From positions 1-63,266 of IMG/VR virus record IMGVR_UViG_3300045970_000244: DNA of 63,266 bases; one strand, 5' to 3'. The number at the start of each line of letters is the position of its first letter. Position 1 is the stretch's first letter. The notes beneath the pieces were generated by a model. The model saw nothing but the letters and a program-made list of their open reading frames with translations, was not told where the DNA came from and searched no databases. Both the position numbers and the translations under genes were made by a program. This DNA comes from a virus (lineage: Duplodnaviria > Caudoviricetes). Below are positions 15,871 to 59,944 of this stretch, piece by piece.

Positions 15871-16143
15871 TTACCGGTGCGAGGAGAGGTGAATCTTCAA
15901 CGCTCGCTCGGTTTTAAAATCGCGGCCACACTTGCCGCACTTTGCAACGGGATCGGCTGGTACGGCGACCTTTGTCGCCTGAGCTATCTGCTTATCCGAG
16001 GCGTCGTCGATCCACTTGATCCAGCCGAGGTTCAAGTTGGCGACCAGCGCCGGGTAACTCCAAGAAAGAGCTTCGGGGACGGGCTGACCTACGCCAACCC
16101 GTTCCCCGTTGCTCAGCACTAGTTCACGACAGGCTATGTACAC
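15871..16143 (-). CDS. Head-associated protein with C-terminal C2H2 zinc finger
   Basis: GTG 16143 after AGGAG; ends CGKCGRDFKTERALKIHLSSHR. Confidence 0.75.
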   Translation of the reverse strand: MYIACRELVLSNGERVGVGQPVPEALSWSYPALVANLNLGWIKWIDDASDKQIAQATKVAVPADPVAKCGKCGRDFKTERALKIHLSSHR

Positions 16144-23964: not shown

Positions 23965-25464
23965 TCATCGCCATTTGCTCGGGCCAGTGAAACTTATCGG
24001 TGCCCAGTCTGTCGGCATCCCTTCGTTCAAACGTGTCAGGGCTTGCGACGTGCTGTCAATCTGGTCGTCGTGTGCGCCGTTGGGAAACACGGCCCACTCT
24101 TCAACGTAGTCATGAATCCACGGGGCAATGCTCGGGTCCGGCAGTATCACATTGCCGGCCTCTATGCTTGGCGTCACGGCTTGGGCTCGTGCGAGCTTGG
24201 CGCCACGGGGTCTGATGGGGATCATGCCGGGGATCTTGTTGCGGAGCGTGTCGATCATCGCAGCGCCGTTGGCGGCCTCTTCGACGAGCTTGGCGTGCGC
24301 GGCGGGCCACTTTGCCGTCAGCGTCATGATGGCCATGATGGTCTCGGTGAACGTGAGCCGGGCCCTCACCTGATCCAGCAGATATTTGTTCGCGCCGATC
24401 TTCCCCCAAACCTGCCCAACAACAAAGTCTGTTTGCGGGCCGTCTTTGAAGGTCAAATCCCACGACTGAATGATCTGGTCGAACGCGCTCGTGGCCGGGG
24501 CTTCGCGGTAGTACTTCCACCACCCGCGCTTGATTAAGGTGCCCTCCTCTGGTGACGGGCGCTGCTGGTAAAGCGAAGACCACACGCGCCGTGAGGCCGC
24601 TTTGATCTTGCCCATGTCCTCTAAGCTGAACACAGAGGGCCACAGGGGTTCGCCTATCTTGCGCGGGTCTTCGTCGTTGGAGTCGTCTTCCCTGATGGCT
24701 GGGAACGACAGCACCGTCCATTGGTCGGCCTGCGGGTCGTCCTTGGCGAGCTTGAGGAGCCGGCCGGCGAGGTCGTCTTCGTGCCAGCGGGTCATGGTGA
24801 GCAGGATTCGCGCGGGCGTGCCGTCAGCGGCGTCCTTCAGCCGGGTGCGGGCCGTGGACATGAACCAGTCAAACTGATGCTGCCGGAAGGTTTCGCTGGA
24901 CGCTTCCTTCATGTTTTTCACCGGGTCGTCGATGATGAACGTGTTGGCCGTCTTACCCGTGAGCGATCCGCCCACGCCCACGCTGTGATACTTGCCCTTT
25001 CGGTTGACGATCTCAAAGACCTCAGTGTTACGGGCCCAGTTGCTGTCGCGCCCATCCGAGAGCTTCACGTCCGGGAACAAGGCGCGGTACTTCTCGCTGT
25101 CGATGATGCGCTGTACGTCTCGGTTGAACTGCGCCGTGAACTGCCACCCGTACGACGCCGCGATGATGTTGTGGTCCGGGTCCTTCCCGAAGATGTACGC
25201 GGGCAGGTGCCGGCTCACCATCTGTGACTTACCGATCTGCGGCTGCAGGAAGATCATCAGCCGGGTAATCTCTCCCTTTACGAATCTCTCCAGATACCGC
25301 GCTATCAGCCTGTGATGCCAGTTGATCTTGAACTCGGGCATCGTGTACTTGGCGAACGATAGGAAGTTCTCGCGCCCGAACGAGGCGACCTTCTCACTGG
25401 TGAGGTCGTGCCACGTGGTGAGCTCGTTATTTCTGGTGTTCAATAACTCTGGGCTTGCTTCCAT
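23965..25464 (-). CDS. terL: Terminase large subunit
   Basis: Walker A PQIGKS, Walker B IIDDPVK, MTRWHEDDL, SWD, FPNGAHDDQID. Confidence 0.95.
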   Translation of the reverse strand: MEASPELLNTRNNELTTWHDLTSEKVASFGRENFLSFAKYTMPEFKINWHHRLIARYLERFVKGEITRLMIFLQPQIGKSQMVSRHLPAYIFGKDPDHNIIAASYGWQFTAQFNRDVQRIIDSEKYRALFPDVKLSDGRDSNWARNTEVFEIVNRKGKYHSVGVGGSLTGKTANTFIIDDPVKNMKEASSETFRQHQFDWFMSTARTRLKDAADGTPARILLTMTRWHEDDLAGRLLKLAKDDPQADQWTVLSFPAIREDDSNDEDPRKIGEPLWPSVFSLEDMGKIKAASRRVWSSLYQQRPSPEEGTLIKRGWWKYYREAPATSAFDQIIQSWDLTFKDGPQTDFVVGQVWGKIGANKYLLDQVRARLTFTETIMAIMTLTAKWPAAHAKLVEEAANGAAMIDTLRNKIPGMIPIRPRGAKLARAQAVTPSIEAGNVILPDPSIAPWIHDYVEEWAVFPNGAHDDQIDSTSQALTRLNEGMPTDWAPISFTGPSKWR

Positions 25465-26026
25465 CGCCTTCGATTTCTTGCAGAAACTTCTGCATCTCCA
25501 AAATCTCTTTCATCTTCTCGGCCGGGGTAAGCTGGTCAACGCGCCTGACTTGAATCGGCGAGCCCTCGCCATCGCCGCTTACGCTCATGGTGCGCGCGTC
25601 GCGGAAGCCGTGCAGGTTCTTCAACATAAAAATCAGCGCCGCCGGGTTCCCTTGTGCTGGCTCGTACTCCCTGCGCATGAGCATTTGCCCGGTGTCGGGG
25701 TCACGCATGGGCCGCCCCTCGGAATCCACCAGCGGGGTTTCGCTCTTGATTCTACGGAGCAAACCGGCTGCTTGCATCTTGGCGAGGTTCTCCCAAAACC
25801 GGAGCGACAGGCTCAGTCCTTTTTGTTTGGCCTCCATGAACTCTGGGTATTCATGTAACCACTCGTAAAGTTTAGATTTACCTGTCAGCGTGATCGCCCC
25901 GAACGACTCAAACGAGTTGCCCTCGCCCATGTGTTTGATGAGCTGGTCGCACCACTCTTGTCGGAACGGTGTCGGTTTGCGTCCGACCTTGAGTTTGTCT
26001 TCTGGGTTTTTCCTTGGGGTCGCCAT
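25427..26026 (-). CDS. terS: Terminase small subunit
   Basis: GRKPT.F...HTH (KSKLYEWLHEYPEF..A), AALIFMLKN..G.RD; directly upstream of terL. Confidence 0.85.
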   Translation of the reverse strand: MATPRKNPEDKLKVGRKPTPFRQEWCDQLIKHMGEGNSFESFGAITLTGKSKLYEWLHEYPEFMEAKQKGLSLSLRFWENLAKMQAAGLLRRIKSETPLVDSEGRPMRDPDTGQMLMRREYEPAQGNPAALIFMLKNLHGFRDARTMSVSGDGEGSPIQVRRVDQLTPAEKMKEILEMQKFLQEIEGDGSKPRVIEHQK

Positions 26027-26100
26027 TTGTTTTTCCAATGTATCAGAGCTGGTTCAGCTTTCACACTGGATTGAATTTGCCGAGAGGTCAACCGATTACA

Positions 26101-26327
26101 CAGGGAAGAGGCGGGGACCGGTCAGAAGCATAACTGCCGATCCCCGTGCCCGAAGGCTCCCTAATGGCTGAGTTCAGTTTGCAAGAGCCGCCGACGTGAC
26201 GGAAGCCCTTGTGTCACATGACAGAAGGTTTTGTGTCAGTTCCGGGGCGGTAACTTCCGTGTAGGCCATTCCCCGGATGGATGAGCGACGTCAACCACTG
26301 AGTTCCGGCGCCCACTATAACCGAGCC
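26101..26327 (-). ncRNA. Candidate pseudoknotted structured RNA upstream of terS
   Basis: Nested long-range stems, a 9-bp pseudoknot, a cUUCGg hairpin and an upstream TATAAT; detailed in findings. Confidence 0.55.
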
Positions 26328-26330
26328 TAT

Positions 26331-26364
26331 ATTATAGTCCCCGGGGCTTGGTGCATTATTGCAC
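26331..26364 (-). promoter_or_regulatory. Putative late promoter -10 box with adjacent palindrome
   Basis: Perfect TATAAT (26336-26331) with no consensus -35; palindrome GTGCA-TTAT-TGCAC at 26351-26364. Confidence 0.45.
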
Positions 26365-26457
26365 TTTTGTTGCGGTTTTCTTGCGTTTTGCTTGGGCGAT
26401 ATACTGTTTAGATTAATGATTCTCAGGCGTTAACACTCTTATATCATAATATATATT

Positions 26458-30545: not shown

Positions 30546-30914
30546 TCAAAACACCGGCAAATGTTCTTCGCCTTCGGGCTGGGCCTCTGGCGCGGGCTGT
30601 TCTTTTGCGTTCGAGCGCAGCACCTGTCGCGCAACAACTTCCGTTGAGGTGCGGGTCTGCCCGTCCTTGTCGTACTGGCGCGTCTGAATCTCACCCTCTA
30701 CGAACACGCCGTCGCCCTTTTGCCACGTGGCCATCTCTTCGGCCGTCTTACCGAACCCTACAACGCGGTGCCAAGTCGTCTCGTAGGTGCCGTCTTTCTT
30801 GCGCTTCGACGTGGCTATGCTCGCGTTCGCCCAAGTGGTGCCAGAGTTCGTAGTGCCGCTCTTGGCGGGCTGCCCAACGCGGCCCACGAGAACGACCATG
30901 TTAGTTGTTAACAT
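30546..30914 (-). CDS. ssb: Single-stranded DNA-binding protein
   Basis: N.VVLVGRVG, TTWHRVV.FGK.AE, KGD.VFVEG.I.TR.Y, acidic tail ending PVF. Confidence 0.95.
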   Translation of the reverse strand: MLTTNMVVLVGRVGQPAKSGTTNSGTTWANASIATSKRKKDGTYETTWHRVVGFGKTAEEMATWQKGDGVFVEGEIQTRQYDKDGQTRTSTEVVARQVLRSNAKEQPAPEAQPEGEEHLPVF

Positions 30915-31495: not shown

Positions 31496-31779
31496 TTGCG
31501 CACCAATCGTTTCCGCCCAAGCTGTTCGACTATCTCCCAGCCGAGGTCGTTGAGTTTCAATTCCAGCACTGGGAACCTCTCGCACATCTGCGACCATCCG
31601 ACGGCATGTTGGGTAATGTGGTGAAGACGACACATTGAGATTAAATTGCTCACGGCATCGCCTCCACCACTCCCCCGGCTCTGAATGTGACAAGCGTCCC
31701 CCGGACGCCGACAGATCACACACGGAGCACCACTAATTGATTTGAGTAGGCTGCGATCCCTGAGCCTGTACTTTGCCAT
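31492..31779 (-). CDS. Zn-binding HNH-like protein (DUF968/DUF1364-like)
   Basis: PCVIC...DACHIQSRGSGG.D...NLI.MCRLHH..QH..GW. Confidence 0.75.
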   Translation of the reverse strand: MAKYRLRDRSLLKSISGAPCVICRRPGDACHIQSRGSGGGDAVSNLISMCRLHHITQHAVGWSQMCERFPVLELKLNDLGWEIVEQLGRKRLVRK

Positions 31780-38299: not shown

Positions 38300-38645
38300 C
38301 TAAGCTGTAAAGTCGTTAAGGCTTGTTTTCCTTGGTAGTCGTTCCTCCTACCAAGGGGCCTTTTGTCTTTGCTGTTTCCCCGTTTTGGTGACACGTATCC
38401 TAACGAGGGAAAACCCCCAAGGCGACGCTCACCACGGCCGAGGACGGCCGCCGTGACACCTGTGCAAGTGACAGCCTGCACATGGTTCCGCGAGACTTGA
38501 CGGACGCTGCACGTCCGAACCCTCAGTGCTCTCGCAGAAAGGTCTTACGACCCCTCGCATCCACACTCGGCGCCGTGAGGTCCCTGTGGCGCCACTTCAA
38601 CTCTCCCCACGGTCGTTTGCATTACCCCTGAGAAAGCCTTACTGC
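38300..38645 (-). ncRNA. Candidate large structured RNA in the leader of the replication initiator
   Basis: At least 7 hairpins, an 8-bp closing helix and a pseudoknot; no convincing ORF; see findings. Confidence 0.55.
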
Positions 38646-38987: not shown

Positions 38988-39602
38988 ATGGAAGCCATAA
39001 AAGCAGAGAAAATCAAAATCGTGCCCCTGAAAGACCTCAAACCCAACCCGTTGAACCGCAACAAGCACCCGCCCGAGCAAATCGTCAGACTTATAGAGAT
39101 AATTCGCTACCAAGGGTTCCGCAACCCCATCGTCGTGAGCAACCGTTCCGGCTTGGTCGTGACTGGCCACGGTCGTCTGGAAGCCGCTAGGGCCATGGGT
39201 CTTGAGCGAGTGCCGGTGATTTTTCAGGACTACGAGGACGAGGATCAGGAGTACGCCCACGCCATCAGCGACAACGCCATCAGCATGTGGGCCGAGCTGG
39301 ACACAGCCGGAATCAACGAAGACCTCGCGCGCATGGGCCGCGAGTTCAGCCTTGAGCAGCTTGGTATGCGCAGTTTTACACAGGAGATCCCCGGGATGCC
39401 CGGCGGCGGCCACTCAGAGCTCCGCGACGACCTTCCGAATGTTGACATCCAAGGGTCCGTGAACAACCGCACTGAAATTTTGGTCATCACGTTTGCCGAC
39501 CCCGAAAAATACGCTGAGGTGCAACGCCAGTTGGGGCTCCGGCCCACACAACGCACCATCACCTATACCGAAATCGTCGACAAGTGGGAGCTGCCGACAT
39601 GA
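38988..39602 (+). CDS. ParB/Srx N-terminal domain protein (modification island)
   Basis: LKPNPLN.NKH..EQI..L...I...GF.NPIVV...VVTGHGRLEAA..MG...VPV...DN. Confidence 0.9.
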   Translation: MEAIKAEKIKIVPLKDLKPNPLNRNKHPPEQIVRLIEIIRYQGFRNPIVVSNRSGLVVTGHGRLEAARAMGLERVPVIFQDYEDEDQEYAHAISDNAISMWAELDTAGINEDLARMGREFSLEQLGMRSFTQEIPGMPGGGHSELRDDLPNVDIQGSVNNRTEILVITFADPEKYAEVQRQLGLRPTQRTITYTEIVDKWELPT

Positions 39603-40864
39603 GCGAGTACATGAGCCCGCGTTGGAGCGGTGAGGTAAGCGATTGCTCCATGCCTATGACTTTCGATACTTACGACCGCTGCACCTACGGGTGCCTGTAC
39701 TGCTTTGCGGTTTACCAGAAAATCAACAGCAAGGGCCCGAACTACTGGCTTGAGCAGCCTGACTTCGTGAACCCCGAACGCATCAAGGCGATGTTCCGGC
39801 TTGAAAAACCCACACAGTTCGAGAAGTACATCCGCGACCGGATGACCATGCAGTGGGGCGGCATGGCTGACCAGTTCGACGAGAACGAGCGCGAGCACGG
39901 CGTCACGCTGGAGCTCCTGAAGTTCTTCCGGGAGATCAAGTACCCGATCTGTTTTTCGACCAAGGCGACGTGGTTCACCAAGGACGACCGCTACATGTCG
40001 CTCATCAAGGACGCCGACCACTTCAACTTCAAGTTCAGTATTATCAACCTCGACCCGGTGCGGGCCGCCGTCATGGAGGAGCGCGTGGATTCCCCACAGG
40101 AACGCCTCGCGGCCATGAAGCGCCTGAACGACATCAACCCCAAGGGAGGCGTCACCCTCAGACTGCGGCCGTTCATCATCGGCCACACTGACCGGCGCGA
40201 CGAGTACCTTGACCTGATCCGTGCGGCGCACGCCTCTGGCGCGTCGGCCGTGACTACGGAGTTCTACTGTGTTGAGGCCCGACTGAAACCCTCTGAGCGG
40301 TGGCGCTACAACCGTGTGTCCGAGCTCTGCGGGTTCGACGTGTTCGAGTTCTACCAGAAGCACAGCACCGGCTCCGGCTACATGAGGCTCAATTATGAAG
40401 TCAAGAGGCCTTACGTCGACAAGATGAAGGCCCTCTGCGACCAACTCGGGATGCGCTTTTACGTCAGCGATGCCCACCACAAAGAGAAGTGCTCGAACGG
40501 CTCCTGCTGTGGCCTTCCTCCGTCATGGAATTACTCACGAGGCCAGTTCACCGAGGCCCTGCTGATCGCCAAAGAGAAGGGAACCGTGCGCTGGTCTGAC
40601 ATCAGCGGCAAGATGGACCACCTCAAGCAGATCAATTACGCCCGGGCCGAGGGCTTCAATACGGCGAACGTCATGAACCGAGCCACGCGCGGCCGGCAAA
40701 CCCTGTACGATTATTTGCAAGAAATCTGGAACACGCCGAACAACCTGAAGTCACCGTACAAGTACTTCGGCGGAATCATGAACCCAACGGGCACGGACGA
40801 AAATGGCGACGTGATTTACGAGTACCGGCCTAAGCCCTGTCCTTCATCAACTCAGCCAGAATAA
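39599..40864 (+). CDS. Radical SAM enzyme (thymidine-hypermodification isomerase-like)
   Basis: CTYGCLYC (CxxxCxxC); extra CSNGSCCG cluster; ATGA-coupled to ParB gene. Confidence 0.85.
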   Translation: MSEYMSPRWSGEVSDCSMPMTFDTYDRCTYGCLYCFAVYQKINSKGPNYWLEQPDFVNPERIKAMFRLEKPTQFEKYIRDRMTMQWGGMADQFDENEREHGVTLELLKFFREIKYPICFSTKATWFTKDDRYMSLIKDADHFNFKFSIINLDPVRAAVMEERVDSPQERLAAMKRLNDINPKGGVTLRLRPFIIGHTDRRDEYLDLIRAAHASGASAVTTEFYCVEARLKPSERWRYNRVSELCGFDVFEFYQKHSTGSGYMRLNYEVKRPYVDKMKALCDQLGMRFYVSDAHHKEKCSNGSCCGLPPSWNYSRGQFTEALLIAKEKGTVRWSDISGKMDHLKQINYARAEGFNTANVMNRATRGRQTLYDYLQEIWNTPNNLKSPYKYFGGIMNPTGTDENGDVIYEYRPKPCPSSTQPE

Positions 40865-41384
40865 ACCCCGCCGCGTTACTGATGTCCGCCTGACACTCGT
40901 TGGTGAGCTGGTGGACGTCTTCAGGGTTCAAGTTTTTCTTGATGTTGGAGATCTTCGTTTTGCGCCCCTTGAGAAAGGTTTCGGTCTGGGTATCGTTCCG
41001 GGCTTTGTGGCGCGCGGCTTTGGTTTCTTCCGTGCACTCCAACACGAACACCTTGATATCCAGTCTTTCGGCACACCAGCTTAGAAAGCTCAGATTGCCG
41101 AGCCGGTCTCCTTCAAAGAAGATGTTCCACTCGCGCGAATTGAATATGAGCTGGTCGATGTAGAGCTGCACCTGCGGCTGGGCCGCCATGCTGAACTTGT
41201 CCGTGCCGCAAAACGTGTCGCCGTCGTTGTAGAACCCGAGAACGATGATCTTCTCGTCCATGTGTTTCGTTCCGTGAACCAAGCCGCTCTTGAAGGGCAT
41301 CCCGGGCGATAACCGGCGCATCATCTCGCGTACGATGGTTGTTTTACCGGAGGCGGGCTCACCAATCATAGCAACAATTTTCAT
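40830..41384 (-). CDS. P-loop kinase, putative 5-hydroxymethyluracil-DNA kinase
   Basis: GEPASGKTT Walker A; LG.Y....F.GTD..SM..QP, FEGDRL, R...R.D.Q...FL.GR.TK motifs; adjacent to transferase. Confidence 0.75.
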   Translation of the reverse strand: MKIVAMIGEPASGKTTIVREMMRRLSPGMPFKSGLVHGTKHMDEKIIVLGFYNDGDTFCGTDKFSMAAQPQVQLYIDQLIFNSREWNIFFEGDRLGNLSFLSWCAERLDIKVFVLECTEETKAARHKARNDTQTETFLKGRKTKISNIKKNLNPEDVHQLTNECQADISNAAGFILAELMKDRA

Positions 41385-42520
41385 GTGTCAATCTCCTTGT
41401 TGAAGTCGTTTTCAAAACAGGGCCAGTCCCGGTGCATCATGATGACTTGCCCGGTCAGGCGATAGTGGTTCTGTTTGCGTGGGACCAAACCCGGGTCGCG
41501 CGGGTTGTCCTCAATCCGAAGGTGCGGCGGTAAGTACCAGCGGCGCGCGTCCCAGAACAGGCTGAAGTCCTCAGCGCCGGCCCAAGCCTCCTCGGCGGTC
41601 TTTATCCGGTTGTAAAACATGTCCATGTAGACGTTCGGGTACCGGCGGTTTTCGCGGTGCCAGCTCTTGTAACAGCACAGGGTTGATTCCAGCGTGAAGT
41701 ACCCGACGTCGCGCTCATCGATGTCCGGGTTGCCGGTCAGGCGCATTCGCGCGGCGTTCAGGAGCAGGTGCCCCTCGGCCTTGAGCCAGTCGATGATCTC
41801 TTTGTTGTAACCACGGAAGGCCGGATTCAGCGTGTCGTGCCAGTCGAGGTCGTCGCGGCCGTTGACCTTACACAGCCCGTTACGGTGAGACTTTGAGCCG
41901 TCGATGTCGTCCAGAAAGAGTTGGTCGCAGTCGATGTTCAGGCCCATGATGCGCAAGTACTCAAGATAGGAAAACGTCGAGAGCCGGCCGAACAACTCGA
42001 ACCCCATGACGTGCCGCCACACACGGCGGAAGTTCTCGTCCTCGTCGGCGGTGTTTGCGAGCTCGCCCTCGAATAATTCTGTTTGACTTTTGCCGCGCAA
42101 GTTCAGCTTGTAGCTCATCACACACTTCTCAAATTGGTTCTTGACATAGCGGCGGTCAGTGTCCCACCCGAGCTTTGGGTAATTCTCACGGAACCAGCGC
42201 GAGAGCTTGTCGATGTTCAGCACCTTGAAGTCAGGGAACCGCTTGAAGATCGTCCAAGTGGTGACGGCGTGCTGGCACAGCCCGTTGATGTACGCGAACC
42301 AGTACCGCTGCTCCTTGTCGAGTTTCTGCGTCTCCACGATGTACGGCATCATCTGGTACACGGCGCCCGGGTGAGATCGGTACTTCAGGTGGAACTCGTA
42401 AAAACGTAAGAACGTCTCTCTTCGGTACTCTGGGAGGCGAAAGTCCATCCCCTTCTCAAGTTCCGTGACCTCGTGCGGGGCGCCACGTCCGGCGCTGTGA
42501 GGGCTACTTTGGTTGAACAT
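41381..42520 (-). CDS. Amino acid:DNA transferase (aG/PT-pyrophosphorylase clade 2 family)
   Basis: DFRLPEYRRE.F..FY.FHLKY.SHPG.VY, WDTDRRY, FGRLSTFSYLEYL, GSKSHRNGL, FTLESTLC.YKSWHR..RRYPNVY. Confidence 0.85.
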   Translation of the reverse strand: MFNQSSPHSAGRGAPHEVTELEKGMDFRLPEYRRETFLRFYEFHLKYRSHPGAVYQMMPYIVETQKLDKEQRYWFAYINGLCQHAVTTWTIFKRFPDFKVLNIDKLSRWFRENYPKLGWDTDRRYVKNQFEKCVMSYKLNLRGKSQTELFEGELANTADEDENFRRVWRHVMGFELFGRLSTFSYLEYLRIMGLNIDCDQLFLDDIDGSKSHRNGLCKVNGRDDLDWHDTLNPAFRGYNKEIIDWLKAEGHLLLNAARMRLTGNPDIDERDVGYFTLESTLCCYKSWHRENRRYPNVYMDMFYNRIKTAEEAWAGAEDFSLFWDARRWYLPPHLRIEDNPRDPGLVPRKQNHYRLTGQVIMMHRDWPCFENDFNKEIDT

Positions 42521-43601
42521 ATTCGTTGATCCTCGTAGGGAAGGCACCAAGCCTCGGAGCAAGCAGGGCACGCATGTTCTCGGCGCGGGGTTTGGACCCG
42601 ACGATCCAGAACACGCTTTTGTGGTTGAGGAGGGCCGGAAGTTTTTCGCAGACGTAGGTCATCATTTTGCCTTCATACGTCGGGTGAAACTCGATCCCCT
42701 TGTAGGAAAACGGCACCTCGGTCTGGTAGTCGACGTACCCAGTGGTGTGCAGGTCATGGTGGATCAGCTCGTAAAGGGGCTCGTCCACGGTGGCTTCATA
42801 CTCAGATTGCACGTCAGGGTGTGAAATATAGTCGCGCTTGAACAGCCGGGTCGGGAGGCCCGCCACCCGCGAGATGATCTCAAGGCGCTCCTCGATCAAC
42901 TGGAGCTTGGGCGGCCCGATGCCGATCAGGTACACGCGTTTCAGGTTCTTCGGCCGAAAGCGCGCGAGCCCGTAAAGAATGCTCACCGTCGAATTGCATG
43001 AGCCAGACGGGATGACCAGAGTTTCCATGTCGTCAGGCAGGTTACGAACCTGTTCAGAACCAATGAAGTGAAACCGCTCGATCCGCCCGCCCGGGTGGCT
43101 ATGGTGGTCAAGTGTGATGCCGTACTCAAGGTAAAAGTATTGTGAGAGCTCGGGGTCGGTTTCCTTGAGGTCGCGCACCTTCTTTTGCAGAACGGGGTTG
43201 TAGGCGATGTTCGGGTTGATGGCAAACCGGGCTCCGAACCACGTGGCCATGGCGACGTTCTCGTGCCGGATGGCGGCGTCGGTGTTCGTGGCGCCGATGA
43301 CGTGCAAGCTCTTGAGCCCATAGTGTGCCGCGATTGCCGAGCCCATCGGGAGCTGCGGTGACTTCACGGAGGTGCCGGAGATCATTCCCACGGCGCCGGG
43401 CTCCTTCAGGTACTCGGTCACGAGCCAGATACACTGCCGTAACTTGCTGCCGTTGATGCCGCCGTAGCCCAGAGGAGCGAATTTGTCCTCCCGCTTGAAT
43501 CGGAGGTTGCCAACCCCTTCAACCGGAGTGAGGTCGAAAATACGCTCCTCCCAGCGGGATTCTGAGCGATCAAGACTGAGTGTCTGGAAGATTGTTTCCA
43601 C
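42504..43601 (-). CDS. Fold-type II PLP-dependent enzyme (putative DNA amino-acid decarboxylase)
   Basis: TPVE...FKRED.F...GGINGSKLRQ (PLP Lys), PSGSCNS, HPTYEGK, FWIVG; start re-set to GTG 43601. Confidence 0.85.
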   Translation of the reverse strand: METIFQTLSLDRSESRWEERIFDLTPVEGVGNLRFKREDKFAPLGYGGINGSKLRQCIWLVTEYLKEPGAVGMISGTSVKSPQLPMGSAIAAHYGLKSLHVIGATNTDAAIRHENVAMATWFGARFAINPNIAYNPVLQKKVRDLKETDPELSQYFYLEYGITLDHHSHPGGRIERFHFIGSEQVRNLPDDMETLVIPSGSCNSTVSILYGLARFRPKNLKRVYLIGIGPPKLQLIEERLEIISRVAGLPTRLFKRDYISHPDVQSEYEATVDEPLYELIHHDLHTTGYVDYQTEVPFSYKGIEFHPTYEGKMMTYVCEKLPALLNHKSVFWIVGSKPRAENMRALLAPRLGAFPTRINEYVQPK

Positions 43602-44475
43602 ACTTCTCCCAAAGAGGATCGCCGGTTTTGCGGCGCTTGGCTTGCTCAAGCTCCTCTTGCGCAGATTTGCAGCGAATCATGGCCTCGCGATAGTAGTAAA
43701 CGATAGTACAGCGTTGGGCGTCGGGCGTGAGCGGTACGATCTGCGTGTTGCCGTGCCACTCGTGAGGGTCGAACAACAGGAGGTCATAAGTGTCGAGCTT
43801 GACGGCAATTCGCCAGTTGGGCAGCACGAGGTCACCGCCCTTGTAAGCGCCCTGCCTGATGGCCGAGATGCAACTGAACCCTTGGGCGAGGTCACCGGCG
43901 TCTTTGTGGCAAGCCGTTCTGAAGTTCTTGTTCACCGTCATGGTGGTGAAGGCCGTGTCAGGAATCAAGAAGTCAGGGGCCGTCCGCCGTGCGTAGTCCT
44001 TCTGGTACTCGTACCGGTCGGGAACGTGCTCGGCAAAGAGGCGGTCTACCTGTTTGACCATCGGCATCAGGGCGTTGAACTTCTCCGGGTGCTGAAGGTT
44101 CCAAGCACAGGCCCGGCAGTAAGGCATCCTGACGGTGCGCTCAAAATAACCGATGATTCCAGAGTACACGCCCCAACCCTTCGGCACGCGCTGGGTCTGC
44201 GACCGGGTGCCGTCTTTGCGCATCCGGCCCTCGCTCTCAATGCCGGCGGCCGTGCCACGGTTGTCGGAGTTCTCGTAGTACCCGTGAAGCACAGACCATG
44301 CGTTCTGAACCAGCAGCGGTGAGAGGGCTTGTTTCAGGAGTACGGCCAGAGGCGAACCATCGGGGCGCTCGACGCGCGTGGTTTCAGTGAGCAGGACGTC
44401 GTAGTCCCGCTCGTCCACGAACCTCATTCCCCAATCTTCGCTATTGGGCTTTGACGGTAGCCTTATGAGCTTCAC
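43570..44475 (-). CDS. TET/JBP-family 2-oxoglutarate/Fe(II) dioxygenase
   Basis: FTT.TVNKNFRTACHKDAGD (HxD), DPHEWHGNT (distal His), R.TIV.Y.RE (2OG Arg); SGIIGYFER...PYCR. Confidence 0.9.
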   Translation of the reverse strand: MKLIRLPSKPNSEDWGMRFVDERDYDVLLTETTRVERPDGSPLAVLLKQALSPLLVQNAWSVLHGYYENSDNRGTAAGIESEGRMRKDGTRSQTQRVPKGWGVYSGIIGYFERTVRMPYCRACAWNLQHPEKFNALMPMVKQVDRLFAEHVPDRYEYQKDYARRTAPDFLIPDTAFTTMTVNKNFRTACHKDAGDLAQGFSCISAIRQGAYKGGDLVLPNWRIAVKLDTYDLLLFDPHEWHGNTQIVPLTPDAQRCTIVYYYREAMIRCKSAQEELEQAKRRKTGDPLWEKCGNNLPDTQS

Positions 44476-45190
44476 GCACTATCCCCAACAGAGTGTCCGA
44501 TATATTGTCCGTGCCGCGCACGGTTTGCAACGCTTCGACCATTGAAACGAAGTCCACGTAATCGTCCATCGTGAAAAACAACTGAAGCTGTTTAACCTGC
44601 GTGGAGCCAGAGGCCATAGTTTTTTCTGGCATCATTCCGGTGTTCGGCGAACCGATGTCAGCCGGGGCCGGGATTGATCCGTCTGTCGGCGAAACAAACG
44701 TCGCGGCCAACTGCGAGAAGTCAACCTCCGGGAAGTGAAAGTTGGAAACCATGTCCTCGTAAGGGATGTCGTTCTCGCGCATAAACTGCGCCAACGAATC
44801 CTTGGTCAGTTTGCCGTACTGAGAGGCCGCCGCAAGCACCTTGCGCTTGGCTTCGGCATAGCTTTCGGCTTCGACCACAGCGACCGGGATTTCGGGAATC
44901 GTCCAGCCCTCGATGGCCTTCATCTGGTTCAGGGTGAACACGCGCTGGTGGCCGTCGATGATGAAAAACTTTCCTTTGTCCTTCCAGACGTGGACAACGA
45001 ACGAGAAACCGAAATCGCCGAGCGTCTTACGCAGGGCCTCGTACTCGGTGCGTTCAAGGTGTTTGAGTGAGCCCTGAAACGGCTCTAATTTTTCGAGCGG
45101 GAGGGTCTGGCTGCCCTTCACGGTGATCTCAAGGGTTTTGCCCGCGATTTTACGCCGGGGCGCGCGTTCTTTGGTCGTTTCTGTTGTCAT
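44441..45190 (-). CDS. Second ParB/Srx-like protein (modification island)
   Basis: LEPFQG.LK.L...Y..L..TL...GF...V.VW....IIDGHQR...L; GAGG RBS. Confidence 0.85.
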   Translation of the reverse strand: MTTETTKERAPRRKIAGKTLEITVKGSQTLPLEKLEPFQGSLKHLERTEYEALRKTLGDFGFSFVVHVWKDKGKFFIIDGHQRVFTLNQMKAIEGWTIPEIPVAVVEAESYAEAKRKVLAAASQYGKLTKDSLAQFMRENDIPYEDMVSNFHFPEVDFSQLAATFVSPTDGSIPAPADIGSPNTGMMPEKTMASGSTQVKQLQLFFTMDDYVDFVSMVEALQTVRGTDNISDTLLGIVREAHKATVKAQ

Positions 45191-46986: not shown

Positions 46987-47214
46987 TTTTTGCTGGTCAC
47001 GGTGGCTGGACGAACACGGTCACCGTGATTTCCTTTTGAACCACTCGGAACAAAAGGCCCTTTATTTTTCCAAAGATTTTCCTTTTATTTTGCTAAAGAA
47101 TGAGCTAAAACTAAGGGCACAAGTGCAACTTCTGCACGAGAACGGTTGGCGAAGCTCCGGCCCATGACTGTCGCTAAAACCGGTAACGCAAATGGGCCAA
47201 CAGGAGCAATCCAC

Positions 47215-55026: not shown

Positions 55027-55066
55027 GTTGGCCGAGAGGCCCAACAGTAGAACCCCTCGGCCCAAG
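55027..55066 (-). terminator. Inverted repeat, possible terminator or processing stem
   Basis: GGCCGAGAGG ... CCTCGGCC in intergenic gap; no clear U tail. Confidence 0.35.
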
Positions 55067-55087
55067 CACTTCAGACGTTGAGCAATA

Positions 55088-57042: not shown

Positions 57043-57455
57043 GTGCGCGCCATCCCCAAGTAGTCTTGTATTTTGTGACGGAAGTCTGTGATTTTCGATT
57101 CAGTGACAACGACGCCGTCTGGAACAATATTCGCCACCTCATCGAGAGCGACGTAAAGTGAGCCAGAAAGCAAAGCAGCTTGAACGTCGGCGGTCACTAG
57201 CATCACCTGTTTGACCTGAGCAAGCGTCAGGCCAGAAACGATGTTCGAAGCGCCGTACTCTGCCATGAGGTTCTTACCGAAGTCCATTGCAGAAAGAACT
57301 CTGGTCTTGACGTAGCCAACCATGTCGGCCTGCGGGCTCGGTGTTCCTCCGTTGAAAAACGCCTGAAGCGCCGCCTTCTCGTAATCCGTCATCGCGGCCG
57401 TTGCGGCGTCAAACTCAACCTGCGTTCTGATGATCTGCCCGTTTATGTTGATCAT
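57039..57455 (-). CDS. Hypothetical protein, possible fibre chaperone
   Basis: Directly downstream of long fibre gene, ATGA coupled. Confidence 0.6.
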   Translation of the reverse strand: MININGQIIRTQVEFDAATAAMTDYEKAALQAFFNGGTPSPQADMVGYVKTRVLSAMDFGKNLMAEYGASNIVSGLTLAQVKQVMLVTADVQAALLSGSLYVALDEVANIVPDGVVVTESKITDFRHKIQDYLGMART

Positions 57456-59944
57456 GCGACCTTCTCAATCTTCAGGACTGCCCCAGCGCGAATCGAAACG
57501 GCCGTGCCGGTTTCTGACCTGATTTGAATTGCCACGGTTCCAGCGACCGAAACCGTGAATGCACCACGCCCCGTATTGACGGCGTCCGCGTTGGCCGTTG
57601 CTGCAGCCGTCGATGTGACGTTGGTCGTCGCCGTGAGCTGTTGATATTGGAACGTAGCCGTTGTTCCATCGGCGGCCTGACCCAACCACCAACGACCAAA
57701 GCACTGTGACAACGTGGCCGTGACAGCACCAATACGAATGCCCCAACCGGTGGTAGTGTTCGTGGTCTGCATCAGAGCGTCGAACTCCCACTTGTAGACG
57801 CCGGGCTGAAGAATAGGTGTGATGAGTTCGGTGACGTTCGCATACGTCGTGGAAGTGGAGCTCTGGACGATTGTCGTGACTTCGGAAACGTTTCCGTCGA
57901 GCTTGGCCTTATCTGCTCCGCTCATTAACCCAGAGGCACCACCAGAGACCGCATCTGGGATGATGTCGCTCCCACCAGTGACGTGATTAGCGGCGTGAGC
58001 AGTTGGCGTGCGGGCGTCGGAGAGCCGTGAATCATTACCTTGGCAAACGGTGCTCACCGCCGATCCGAACGGAATTTCAGAGGCGAGGTGCTTTGAGGCC
58101 GCCGTCAACGAGGCATACCCGCTGGCCGCACCCTTGCTGGCGGCGTTTTCGGGAGTGAACCCGAGCGCGTTTTGCTTGGCGTTCCAAGTTGTTTTCTCGG
58201 TGTCAGTGACGAACCTGAATGATGCCGACTGAGTGATGTTCGCGGGATTCGTCGTATCTACGTTCAGGACGTTGCCCAGACCGATGGCGAGCCTGTCCAA
58301 GTTCTGCCACGTCTTATCTCCACGCCAATATTGGGCCGTGCTCCCTGCTGTGATCGAACCCTCTTTAGCGTTAAGGGCAGTCTGTGTGGCCGTGGATATG
58401 GGCTTACTGAGATCGGTCGTGTTATCGACGTTTCCGAGGCCAACAGAGGCTTTGTCGTGGGCTTGCCACGTCTTGTCGCCCCTCCAGTATTGCGCGGTTG
58501 TCCCGGCAGCGATGCTTGCCTCTTTGCCGTTCAACGCCGTTTGGGTCGCGGTGGAGATGGGCTTGTTCAGATCAGTGGTGTTGTCGACATTTGCAAGACC
58601 TACGGCCGTCTTATCGAGGAGCTGCCATGTTTTGTCCCCGCGCCAGTATTGGCTCGTGGCTCCCGCTGTGATGCTGGCTTCTTTCCCGTTGAGAGCTGTC
58701 TGGGTCGCTGTGGAAATTGGTTTGCTCAAGTCGCTCGTATTGTCGACGCTTCCCAAGCCAACGTCTGCCTTCGCGAGTACGACCGCGCCCGTTCTTCCGG
58801 CTACGCTCTGAACAGGTGCGGCGGCGGCTGCTCTTATGTTCGTGAAGTAAAGATTTGTGCTGCCCTCTGGGACGGCGTCAGTGCTGCCCGGGCTCGGCGA
58901 GATTTCGATATAGGCCGAACCGCTCCATCGATAAGTTTTGTTTGAGTCCAAGGCGACGTAGATTTTTGCGTTCTCACCGGTGCCCGGGAATGCCGCAAGG
59001 TTTGCGAACTCCAACACGTCATCAACGAACGACGGCAAGTAGATCGCCGCGATCTTCGAGGTTGCATCGAGCGGGCAAACCCCGCTGGCTGCGCCCTTCT
59101 CCGAGGCATTGAGCTTCAAGCTCAAAGCTGTCTGAGTTGCGGTCGAGACCGGCTTGTTCACGTCCGAAGTGTCGTCGACGTTTCCAAGGCCAACGGCGCT
59201 CTTGTCTAGAGTTTGCCAAGACTTATCACCGCGCCAATATTGAGAGGTGGTTCCGGCGACAATCGTCGGCTCTTTCGCATTCAGTGCGGTCTGGGTGGGC
59301 GTTGAAATCGGCTTACTGAGGTCGCTGGTGTTGTCGACGTTCGAAAGCCCAACTGCGGCCTTGTCTAAGGCGGCCCAGATCTTGTCCCCGCGCCAGTATT
59401 GAGCCGTGGTGCCCGAAGCGATGGCGGATTCTTTGCTGTTCCAAGTGGTTTTTTCGGCGTCCGAAACAAAACGGTGCGTGGCGTCTTGGGTGATGTTCGC
59501 CGGATTACTGGTGTCTAGGTTCGGCACGCTTGAGAGGCCGACGGCCGCTTTGTCCAAAGTCTGCCAGCTTTTGTCGCCGCGCCAATACTGGCTCGTCGTT
59601 CCGGCCGAGATCGCGGCCTCCTTCGCGTTCCAAGCCACCTTCTCGGCATCTGTCACAAAGCGATGTGTCAGGTCTTGTGTGATGTTCGACGGGTTTGTGG
59701 AATCTGCGTTCGGTACGTTGGAAAGACCGATGTCGGCCTTGGTGAGAACGACGTCCACGCTGAGGGCGTGACCGTTGACCGTCCGCGAGACAGGCACGGC
59801 TTCGGTCGAGGCCAAGAACTCAACCTCAGCAAGAGTGTCGCCGTCTTTGCGCCAAAAGGTTCCGTCCGGCTTAATGTAGAGGCCGACGGTGCCAGCCGGA
59901 GGATTGATTGTTGGGACTTCTTTTGTCAAAACTAGATCGCTCAT
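57452..59944 (-). CDS. Long tail fibre with QYWRGDK repeats
   Basis: Six KE..I..G.T.QYWRGDK.W...DK..VGL.NV units; LPSFVDDVLE...YRWSGSAY.EI knob motif. Confidence 0.9.
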   Translation of the reverse strand: MSDLVLTKEVPTINPPAGTVGLYIKPDGTFWRKDGDTLAEVEFLASTEAVPVSRTVNGHALSVDVVLTKADIGLSNVPNADSTNPSNITQDLTHRFVTDAEKVAWNAKEAAISAGTTSQYWRGDKSWQTLDKAAVGLSSVPNLDTSNPANITQDATHRFVSDAEKTTWNSKESAIASGTTAQYWRGDKIWAALDKAAVGLSNVDNTSDLSKPISTPTQTALNAKEPTIVAGTTSQYWRGDKSWQTLDKSAVGLGNVDDTSDVNKPVSTATQTALSLKLNASEKGAASGVCPLDATSKIAAIYLPSFVDDVLEFANLAAFPGTGENAKIYVALDSNKTYRWSGSAYIEISPSPGSTDAVPEGSTNLYFTNIRAAAAAPVQSVAGRTGAVVLAKADVGLGSVDNTSDLSKPISTATQTALNGKEASITAGATSQYWRGDKTWQLLDKTAVGLANVDNTTDLNKPISTATQTALNGKEASIAAGTTAQYWRGDKTWQAHDKASVGLGNVDNTTDLSKPISTATQTALNAKEGSITAGSTAQYWRGDKTWQNLDRLAIGLGNVLNVDTTNPANITQSASFRFVTDTEKTTWNAKQNALGFTPENAASKGAASGYASLTAASKHLASEIPFGSAVSTVCQGNDSRLSDARTPTAHAANHVTGGSDIIPDAVSGGASGLMSGADKAKLDGNVSEVTTIVQSSTSTTYANVTELITPILQPGVYKWEFDALMQTTNTTTGWGIRIGAVTATLSQCFGRWWLGQAADGTTATFQYQQLTATTNVTSTAAATANADAVNTGRGAFTVSVAGTVAIQIRSETGTAVSIRAGAVLKIEKVA

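Follow-up and report, generated by a model that had tools for sequence, protein, structure and literature searches.

Upstream of the small-terminase gene (terS) of the phage genome analysed here, a preliminary description had placed a single pseudoknotted RNA of approximately 230 nt (positions 26101–26327, minus strand), located between a late promoter and terS and belonging to no assignable family. The question raised by this locus is whether one large folded RNA is encoded at this site, or whether the sequence is better explained by a control region with a conventional 5′ leader, by DNA sites or by chance.

The window, i.e. the whole stretch of DNA that was analysed, is a complete virus record of 63,266 bp, whose 127-bp terminal repeat represents an assembly overlap. 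The genome is myovirus-like (sheath, baseplate and tape measure) and its head module encodes a Terminase_6 TerL, a Mu-type portal and a Mu F-like protein. Since nearly all of the genes are carried by the minus strand, the stretch is expected to be transcribed in the minus-strand sense. It is situated inside the largest non-coding gap of the genome (26039–26457, 419 nt, according to our own ORF map), which is followed by terS, then terL and the portal gene. Elsewhere in the window, a DNA-hypermodification gene cluster occupies positions 39584–45190 (Table 1), and the tail-fibre gene (57452–59944) contains three internal copies of a 275-nt repeat (58268–59451) sharing 68–71% identity.

The first 15 residues of TerS, MATPRKNPEDKLKVG (26026–25982), are identical in the homologue P0005 and show one difference in the homologue P0002 (MATPRKKPEDKLKVG), despite the fact that these two proteins are overall only 45–56% identical to TerS. 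Such a near-identical N-terminus could mean that either the protein itself or the nucleic acid at the start of the gene is under constraint.

The stretch is non-coding. No ORF of 40 or more aa is present on its minus strand, and codon periodicity is absent (GC content by phase of 0.55, 0.61 and 0.63, a spread of 0.07 compared with a genome median of 0.26). A 31-aa ORF (26174–26269) was rejected as a coding sequence, its G-run being located merely 2 nt ahead of the AUG. With a GC content of 59%, adjoining an AT-rich promoter region, a non-coding segment of 230 nt without codon periodicity is unusual for a densely packed phage genome. Read 5′ to 3′ on the minus strand, the gap contains, in order, an AT-rich spacer, phased A-tracts, the GTGCA palindrome, the palindrome CCCCGGGG, TATAAT, TATAGT, the GC-rich 230 nt, an 85-nt C-rich tail and the terS AUG. 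The features of the region are listed in Table 1.

Table 1. Features of the gap upstream of terS, its flanking genes and the DNA-hypermodification gene cluster (shuffle counts give the number of shuffled sequences folding as well).
Feature	Position	Strand	Remarks
Upstream ORF, 122 aa	26458–26826		PF18066, 17.8 bits, under the cut-off of 27 (Pfam); ABA-sandwich/NinX-like (ESM Atlas)
11-bp repeat ×2.8, phased A/T-tracts	26365–26394		TRF period 11, score 39; repeat family D3
Perfect palindrome GTGCA-N4-TGCAC, in the −35 place	26351–26364		Sole exact match in the window
Palindrome CCCCGGGG	26339–26346		2 bases (AC) upstream of the −10 hexamer
Consensus −10 hexamer TATAAT	26331–26336	−	No recognisable −35
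Second −10-like hexamer TATAGT	26314–26319	−	11 nt downstream of TATAAT
5′ core	26166–26327	−	Closing helix (26327–26314/26178–26166) around several hairpins; z −1.48, 15/200 shuffles
Hairpin A (CCGGGG.../...CCCCGG)	26241–26277	−	Loop is the proposed pseudoknot partner; in every fold; alone not significant
Two side-by-side 20-bp dyads TGAC(A/G)-N10-TGTCA	26197–26216, 26219–26238		Form the 22-bp tandem repeat; also direct repeat D2
Hairpin C, 11 bp, two G-U pairs	26182–26211	−	−16.0 kcal/mol, z −3.68, 0/200 shuffles; plus strand −11.7 kcal/mol
Domain 2, three-way junction	26101–26163	−	6-bp closing helix, GCC-UUCG-GGC hairpin (26157–26148) and hairpin E
Hairpin E, 13 bp, GC-rich	26112–26146	−	Without U-tract; 85 nt ahead of the terS AUG; z −5.41, 0/200 shuffles
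Remaining leader, C-rich, weakly structured	26027–26100	−	Small hairpin overlapping a weak SD-like GGA; z −1.54, 14/200 shuffles
terS	25427–26026	−	phrog_309, E 1.2e-10; probable true start ATG 26026–26024 (MATPRK...), set by homologue N-termini
Radical SAM protein	39584–40864	+	
P-loop nucleotide kinase 3-like	40830–41384		Below the Pfam cut-off
Amino acid:DNA transferase ADDT	41381–42571		84.6 bits
Tet/JBP dioxygenase	43570–44475		70.9 bits
ParB/methyltransferase-like protein	44441–45190		

The sequence and coordinates given in the preliminary description proved to be correct, and all of the helices listed there were found in place. Each of the five pairings claimed is able to form a duplex, with predicted energies of −10.3, −12.9, −3.7 and −13.4 kcal/mol for the four helices and −11.4 kcal/mol for the pseudoknot. 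The RNA was said to begin just after a perfect TATAAT, and the minus strand indeed reads GGCUCGG... from position 26327, shortly after this hexamer. Folding of the complete 227-nt minus strand gave a minimum free energy (MFE) of −93.3 kcal/mol (z −3.18), which was equalled by none of 200 dinucleotide shuffles, while the plus strand gave a z of −1.90, with six of 200 shuffles folding as well. The MFE and centroid structures agree and both contain the closing helix, and the nested fold proposed earlier, at −87.6 kcal/mol, is energetically competitive, as is its −11.4 kcal/mol pseudoknot duplex. These values, together with the contrast between the GC-rich non-coding stretch and its AT-rich surroundings, are in favour of a discrete, stable RNA of a new class, approximately 215–230 nt long, extending from TATAAT to hairpin E in roughly the fold proposed and acting in trans or on RNA polymerase. 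When compared with 2102 GC-adjusted windows of 227 nt from the same genome, the stretch falls merely at the 2.5% tail.

Dissection of the fold revealed that its stability is unevenly distributed. Against such a unit, the 5′ core as a whole is indistinguishable from chance (Table 1), as are the 66 nt around hairpin A (26301–26236; z −0.82, 43 of 200 shuffles as good). Of 200 shuffles, 14% yield a loop-to-distal duplex at least as stable as −11.4 kcal/mol, and both the pseudoknot and helix 2 (26313–26305/26194–26185) compete with the significant hairpin C. In the fold of a longer, 331-nt leader that includes the terS start (z −1.94), the closing helix no longer forms, and when folding is begun at 26322 instead of 26327 the z falls to −2.23. 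Transcription by sigma-70 polymerase normally starts about 7 nt downstream of a −10 hexamer. The closing helix requires bases 26327–26324, placed 4–7 nt after the hexamer, and its 5′ bases would therefore be mostly untranscribed from TATAAT. The proposal of one pseudoknotted RNA of about 230 nt thus has no support beyond chance; folding better than dinucleotide shuffles is seen for the whole 227 nt, the 3′ domain and hairpin C, but not for the 5′ core.

The strand dependence of folding follows the same division. It had been claimed that G-U pairs favour the minus strand; this is true of domain 2 (tested as 26165–26101; −34.5 kcal/mol on the minus strand compared with −30.0 on the plus strand) and of hairpin C, both of which are 4–4.5 kcal/mol more stable in the minus-strand sense, but the core is about equally stable on both strands (−57.1 and −56.7 kcal/mol). 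In a genome-wide scan, the plus-strand window 26161–26387, which covers the core and the promoter, was a folding outlier (−2.8 SD), as is expected of palindrome-rich DNA.

The most unusual part of the stretch is its 3′ end. None of 200 shuffles folded as well as domain 2 (z −4.30), and in a genome-wide GC-adjusted scan it reached −3.9 SD, with only 10 of 9724 windows of 65 nt equal or better (top 0.1%). Domain 2 is exceptionally stable, biased towards the sense strand and positioned immediately before the C-rich tail that leads to terS. A sense-strand RNA structure is likely in the 3′ domain and in one internal hairpin, hairpin C. The cUUCGg tetraloop of domain 2 was discarded as evidence for RNA, because 13 such small hairpins are present over both strands of the genome. 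Other top-ranked structured windows of 65 nt in the scan were located at 42745–42809 (plus strand), 46996–47060 (plus strand), 38385–38488 (minus strand) and 31612–31676 (minus strand).

Hairpin E is followed by the tail GCCUCUUCCCUG and, since it has no U-tract, it does not fit the pattern of an intrinsic terminator; a minus-strand terminator scan made no call for it. The lack of a canonical terminator defining a 3′ end is a further point against a discrete RNA. Hairpin E is among the nine strongest minus-strand hairpins of 46 nt (−25 kcal/mol or better), four of which are intergenic against a background of 16.5%; this enrichment is weak (P 0.047) and is based on a rough gene list of our own making. 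The remaining three intergenic hairpins (16067–16112, 55028–55073 and 30851–30896, minus strand) are located directly after stop codons and have no clear U-tract, and one such post-stop hairpin follows the major capsid gene. These GC-rich post-stop hairpins are probably terminators or 3′ stabilisers of this phage. Because hairpin E groups with them, a role at the RNA level (terminator, attenuator or protective hairpin) is the most economical explanation of domain 2.

The stretch was also said to lie behind a late promoter and ahead of terS. Its position is as described, insofar as it adjoins the promoter-like TATAAT and has terS downstream, but no −35 sequence fits, and for this reason a sigma-70 scan called no minus-strand promoter at this site. 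TATAAT, which matches the −10 consensus, is thus a putative promoter. Phased A/T-tracts upstream of it are candidates for an intrinsic bend, judging from their phasing, and the GTGCA-N4-TGCAC palindrome may be bound by an activator or another regulator. An alternative promoter downstream of hairpin E was found neither by the promoter scan nor by eye.

Taken together, the stretch has the appearance of an ordinary region controlling the late packaging/morphogenesis operon, together with the 5′ leader of that operon, and not of a single 230-nt pseudoknotted RNA, since the latter is not supported beyond chance. The explanation to which we give the highest probability, although a tentative one (about 0.45), is that of a late promoter of the activator type with a long 5′ leader downstream of it, in which a terminator-like hairpin domain gates or stabilises the transcripts of the terS operon. 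In this model, TATAAT (26336–26331) would be a −10-only promoter with upstream palindromes and phased A-tracts, probably dependent on a phage-encoded activator, and transcription from it would produce an untranslated leader of about 300 nt. The well-supported RNA parts of this putative leader are hairpin C and the three-way-junction domain (26163–26101) with hairpin E. Hairpin E would most likely act as an RNA-level terminator or attenuator gating transcription into terS, terL and the portal gene; alternatively, it may be a protective or processing hairpin. Promoter activity, the ends of the transcript and termination or antitermination are what we infer from these signals.

The leader interpretation is consistent with (i) the placement of the stretch in the largest gap and the orientation of the genes, (ii) its non-coding character, (iii) the stability and strand bias of domain 2, (iv) the resemblance of hairpin E to gene-end hairpins, (v) the TATAAT and TATAGT hexamers and (vi) a positional parallel in one relative (locus L019, see below). 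It is weakened by the lack of a homologue, of a −35 sequence, of a U-tract and of a recognised late regulator, by the leaderless organization of six of seven terS relatives, by the weak hairpin enrichment mentioned above and by the unusually good folding of the plus strand. In IMG/VR phages, candidate structured RNAs preceding terminase genes have been described (PMC10690425), and the present locus is similar to them in having a putative promoter and then a folded leader, absent from Rfam, directly before a small-terminase gene. It differs in that those RNAs were reported to be conserved among relatives, while no relative of the present stretch was detected.

The general arrangement also invites comparison with the lambdoid late-gene control cassette. 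NinX-like genes are located in the nin region of P22/lambda, and the lambdoid PR′-to-terminator transcript is the 6S RNA, of about 194 nt. The Q cassette, as its layout is given in two reports (PMC9388147; PMC9191641), is composed of the PR′ promoter, a sigma-dependent pause element, a terminator and the late genes. The gap described here is similar in that a NinX-like gene (the last one of the early region), a putative promoter, the hexamer TATAGT (26319–26314) within the first transcribed bases, a strong hairpin about 200 nt further on and late genes follow one another. By analogy with the lambda PR′ cassette (PMC9388147), TATAGT may be a sigma-dependent pause element, or else a second promoter; the length and position of the stretch, like those of the short PR′-to-terminator transcript in the same layout, would fit a discrete RNA. 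However, no Q family was recognisable by Pfam among the 64 ORFs, although an unrecognised analogue may be present, and the gene directly upstream is ABA-sandwich/NinX-like. Moreover, unlike in the Q cassette, the hairpin has no U-tract, the promoter has no −35 sequence, and the late operon begins with terS instead of lysis genes. The functional parallels are accordingly suggested by analogy of arrangement. Neither Pfam (64 ORFs, in sets of 10, 9 and 45) nor PHROGs (sets of 5 and 44 proteins) recognised any family of antiterminators, sigma factors or late activators.

The put RNAs of HK022 are about 70 nt long, consist of two stem-loops, are encoded beside early promoters and function as cis-acting antiterminators. 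The present stretch is comparable in that a folded RNA produced close behind a phage promoter could influence the polymerase that transcribes it, but nothing in our data singles out a cis-acting antitermination RNA mechanism. If antitermination is involved, hairpin E looks like its target, i.e. a terminator-type signal, and not like an antiterminator RNA, one of the roles put forward in the preliminary description.

In agreement with the earlier failure to assign a family, a search of the whole window against Rfam 15 gave no matches at gathering score, and at E<10 only chance-level matches to Acido-1 (12.8 bits compared with a gathering score of 50) and SNORD49 (12.4 compared with 37) appeared. 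The families searched include ribozymes, riboswitches, tmRNA, 6S RNA and phage motifs, so that there is no pointer to a ribozyme or to any other catalogued RNA, and nothing was found in support of a packaging-associated RNA or an RNA-polymerase decoy, which had also been suggested. A tRNA- or tmRNA-like reading was discarded, ARAGORN finding neither in the window. When the retrieved loci (13, then 36) were searched by blastn and nhmmer, no homologue of the stretch was detected, and a single-sequence covariance model run against the window and 36 loci, five whole virus records and four more loci recovered the stretch itself only. In total, the gap was compared with 40 loci and five whole related virus records, without any similarity. 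Three DNA-pattern scans of IMG/VR gave no matches, a phage blastn search with a 1.5-kb query gave nothing usable, and no usable homologue was obtained with terS alone in IMG/VR, with a terS alignment in GTDB genomes or with P0002, the closest terS relative, in IMG/VR. The upstream 122-aa ORF had one partial match in IMG/VR, matched only itself in a set of 5.8 billion proteins and, as a protein query, gave no matches in the five related virus records. As these searches recovered no homologue, neither covariation nor conservation provides evidence for the structure of the stretch. The lack of an Rfam match and of homologues also tells against a new RNA class.

The best relatives of TerL are 44–52% identical and those of TerS 24–56% identical, and the phage lineage is poorly sampled. 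The DNA was found in one sequencing run, which is probably that of the source sample, and no RNA run was among those listed. The contigs of this run (about 8× depth) contained no variants, and read ends are invisible in it, since the data are stored as contigs.

At six of the seven closest terS loci, terS is packed against the upstream ORF and has no long leader. The exception among the seven terS relatives examined is L019, a 63.7-kb genome with 931 nt of non-coding sequence upstream of the gene. A hairpin in this gap (z −5.46) ends 66 nt before the L019 terS start; it is very strong and parallels hairpin E in position, but not by homology. The AT-rich 931-nt gap also contains a GC-rich island (L019 positions 2225–2296) that folds into a long hairpin with imperfect pairing (z −2.94, equalled by none of 200 shuffles), with no Rfam match at gathering score.

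Several TerL relatives carry other RNA-like sequences. In L012 (2331–2404), a tRNA-Gly (ACC) gene is located directly upstream of the terminase genes (ARAGORN; Rfam tRNA, 48.4 bits), and in L005 (1211–1876) ARAGORN calls a putative permuted tmRNA-like gene, so that two relatives have a tRNA or tRNA-like sequence where the stretch is located in the present genome. A borderline match to the Rfam abiF RNA motif (37.5 bits compared with a gathering score of 37) was found in L002 (1654–1693).

An alternative to the leader is that the functional elements of the region are DNA sites, not RNA, and that the dyads, phased A-tracts and palindromes are bound by a phage protein, i.e. the small terminase at a headful pac site, a repressor or activator at operators, or a replication initiator. 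The region does contain repeats of the DNA type: the 22-bp tandem repeat (TRF, 1.9 copies, 80% matches, score 56) and the 11-bp phased repeat. The tandem repeat corresponds to the paired dyads, an arrangement typically seen where dimeric proteins bind DNA and one that as a pair occurs nowhere else in the window, making the dyads candidate protein-binding sites. These DNA-type repeats generate part of the pairing in the fold proposed earlier, and both the equal stability of the core on the two strands and the plus-strand folding outlier over it would fit this explanation. However, the dyad pattern has four matches in the window, two of them adjacent at this site, and this count is not significant (1.76 expected; eight of 100 shuffles reach four). 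In addition, only two repeat units are present, at about +90 to +135 from the putative transcription start, and domain 2 is an imperfect, strand-biased set of hairpins with a bulge and G-U pairs, and thus suits RNA more than a protein-binding palindrome.

With regard to packaging, a Terminase_6 TerL combined with a Mu-type portal and a Mu F-like protein, as encoded in this head module, goes with headful packaging, and the N-terminal domain of TerS is weakly similar to the Sf6 gene 1 protein (E 0.004). The pac sites of P22-like phages lie within terS, not upstream of it, which argues against a pac site in the gap. In SPP1, according to PMC4737164, pac comprises three sets of direct repeats over the promoters and the terS start, with intrinsically bent DNA. 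The present stretch has comparable ingredients and resembles the SPP1/SF6 pac in its location upstream of and adjoining terS, its overlap with a putative promoter, and its direct repeats and phased A-tracts (a possible bend). It differs in the lack of sequence similarity, in having only two sets of repeats, placed upstream of terS and not inside it, in its terminase of the Terminase_6/Mu-portal type and in that its strongest feature is the strand-biased hairpin domain. DNA sites as the sole functional elements of the region are considered unlikely; such a role may also coexist with a leader.

It is similarly doubtful that the region contains no selected structure at all, i.e. that the hairpins arose incidentally from a spacer rich in GC and from a duplication that took place locally and recently (the 22-bp repeat), TATAAT being fortuitous. 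This explanation would account for the chance-level core, for the modest standing of the full-length fold among windows of the same genome, for the lack of demonstrable conservation and for the fact that most terS relatives have no such region. Nevertheless, it is difficult to reconcile with the top-0.1% outlier formed by domain 2 (z −4.3 to −5.4), with 230 nt of non-periodic sequence of 59% GC in the largest gap of the genome, and with the clustering of the −10 hexamer, palindromes, phased repeats and dyads as independent signals.

The discrete RNA of a new class introduced above is, on the evidence given, improbable. The same low standing is given to a late-gene switch of a new kind, in which a promoter, a −10-like repeat and a GC-rich RNA of about 215 nt ending in a three-way junction would yield a short transcript resembling lambda 6S, with read-through brought about by an unrecognised antiterminator of this phage, or to a free-standing new ncRNA class before terS in a freshwater myovirus clade with hypermodified DNA.

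The locus is accordingly filed as an uncatalogued structured leader/control region preceding terS, a known kind of element that in this case has no detectable relatives, and as matters stand it is another such leader. The main result is a limit on what may be claimed for it: the large pseudoknotted RNA is unsupported, and DNA-type repeats lie behind part of its pairing. If the hairpin domain does gate the packaging operon, it would mark the switch between early and late gene expression in a poorly sampled phage lineage without a recognisable late regulator, and it would then provide a handle for finding that regulator.
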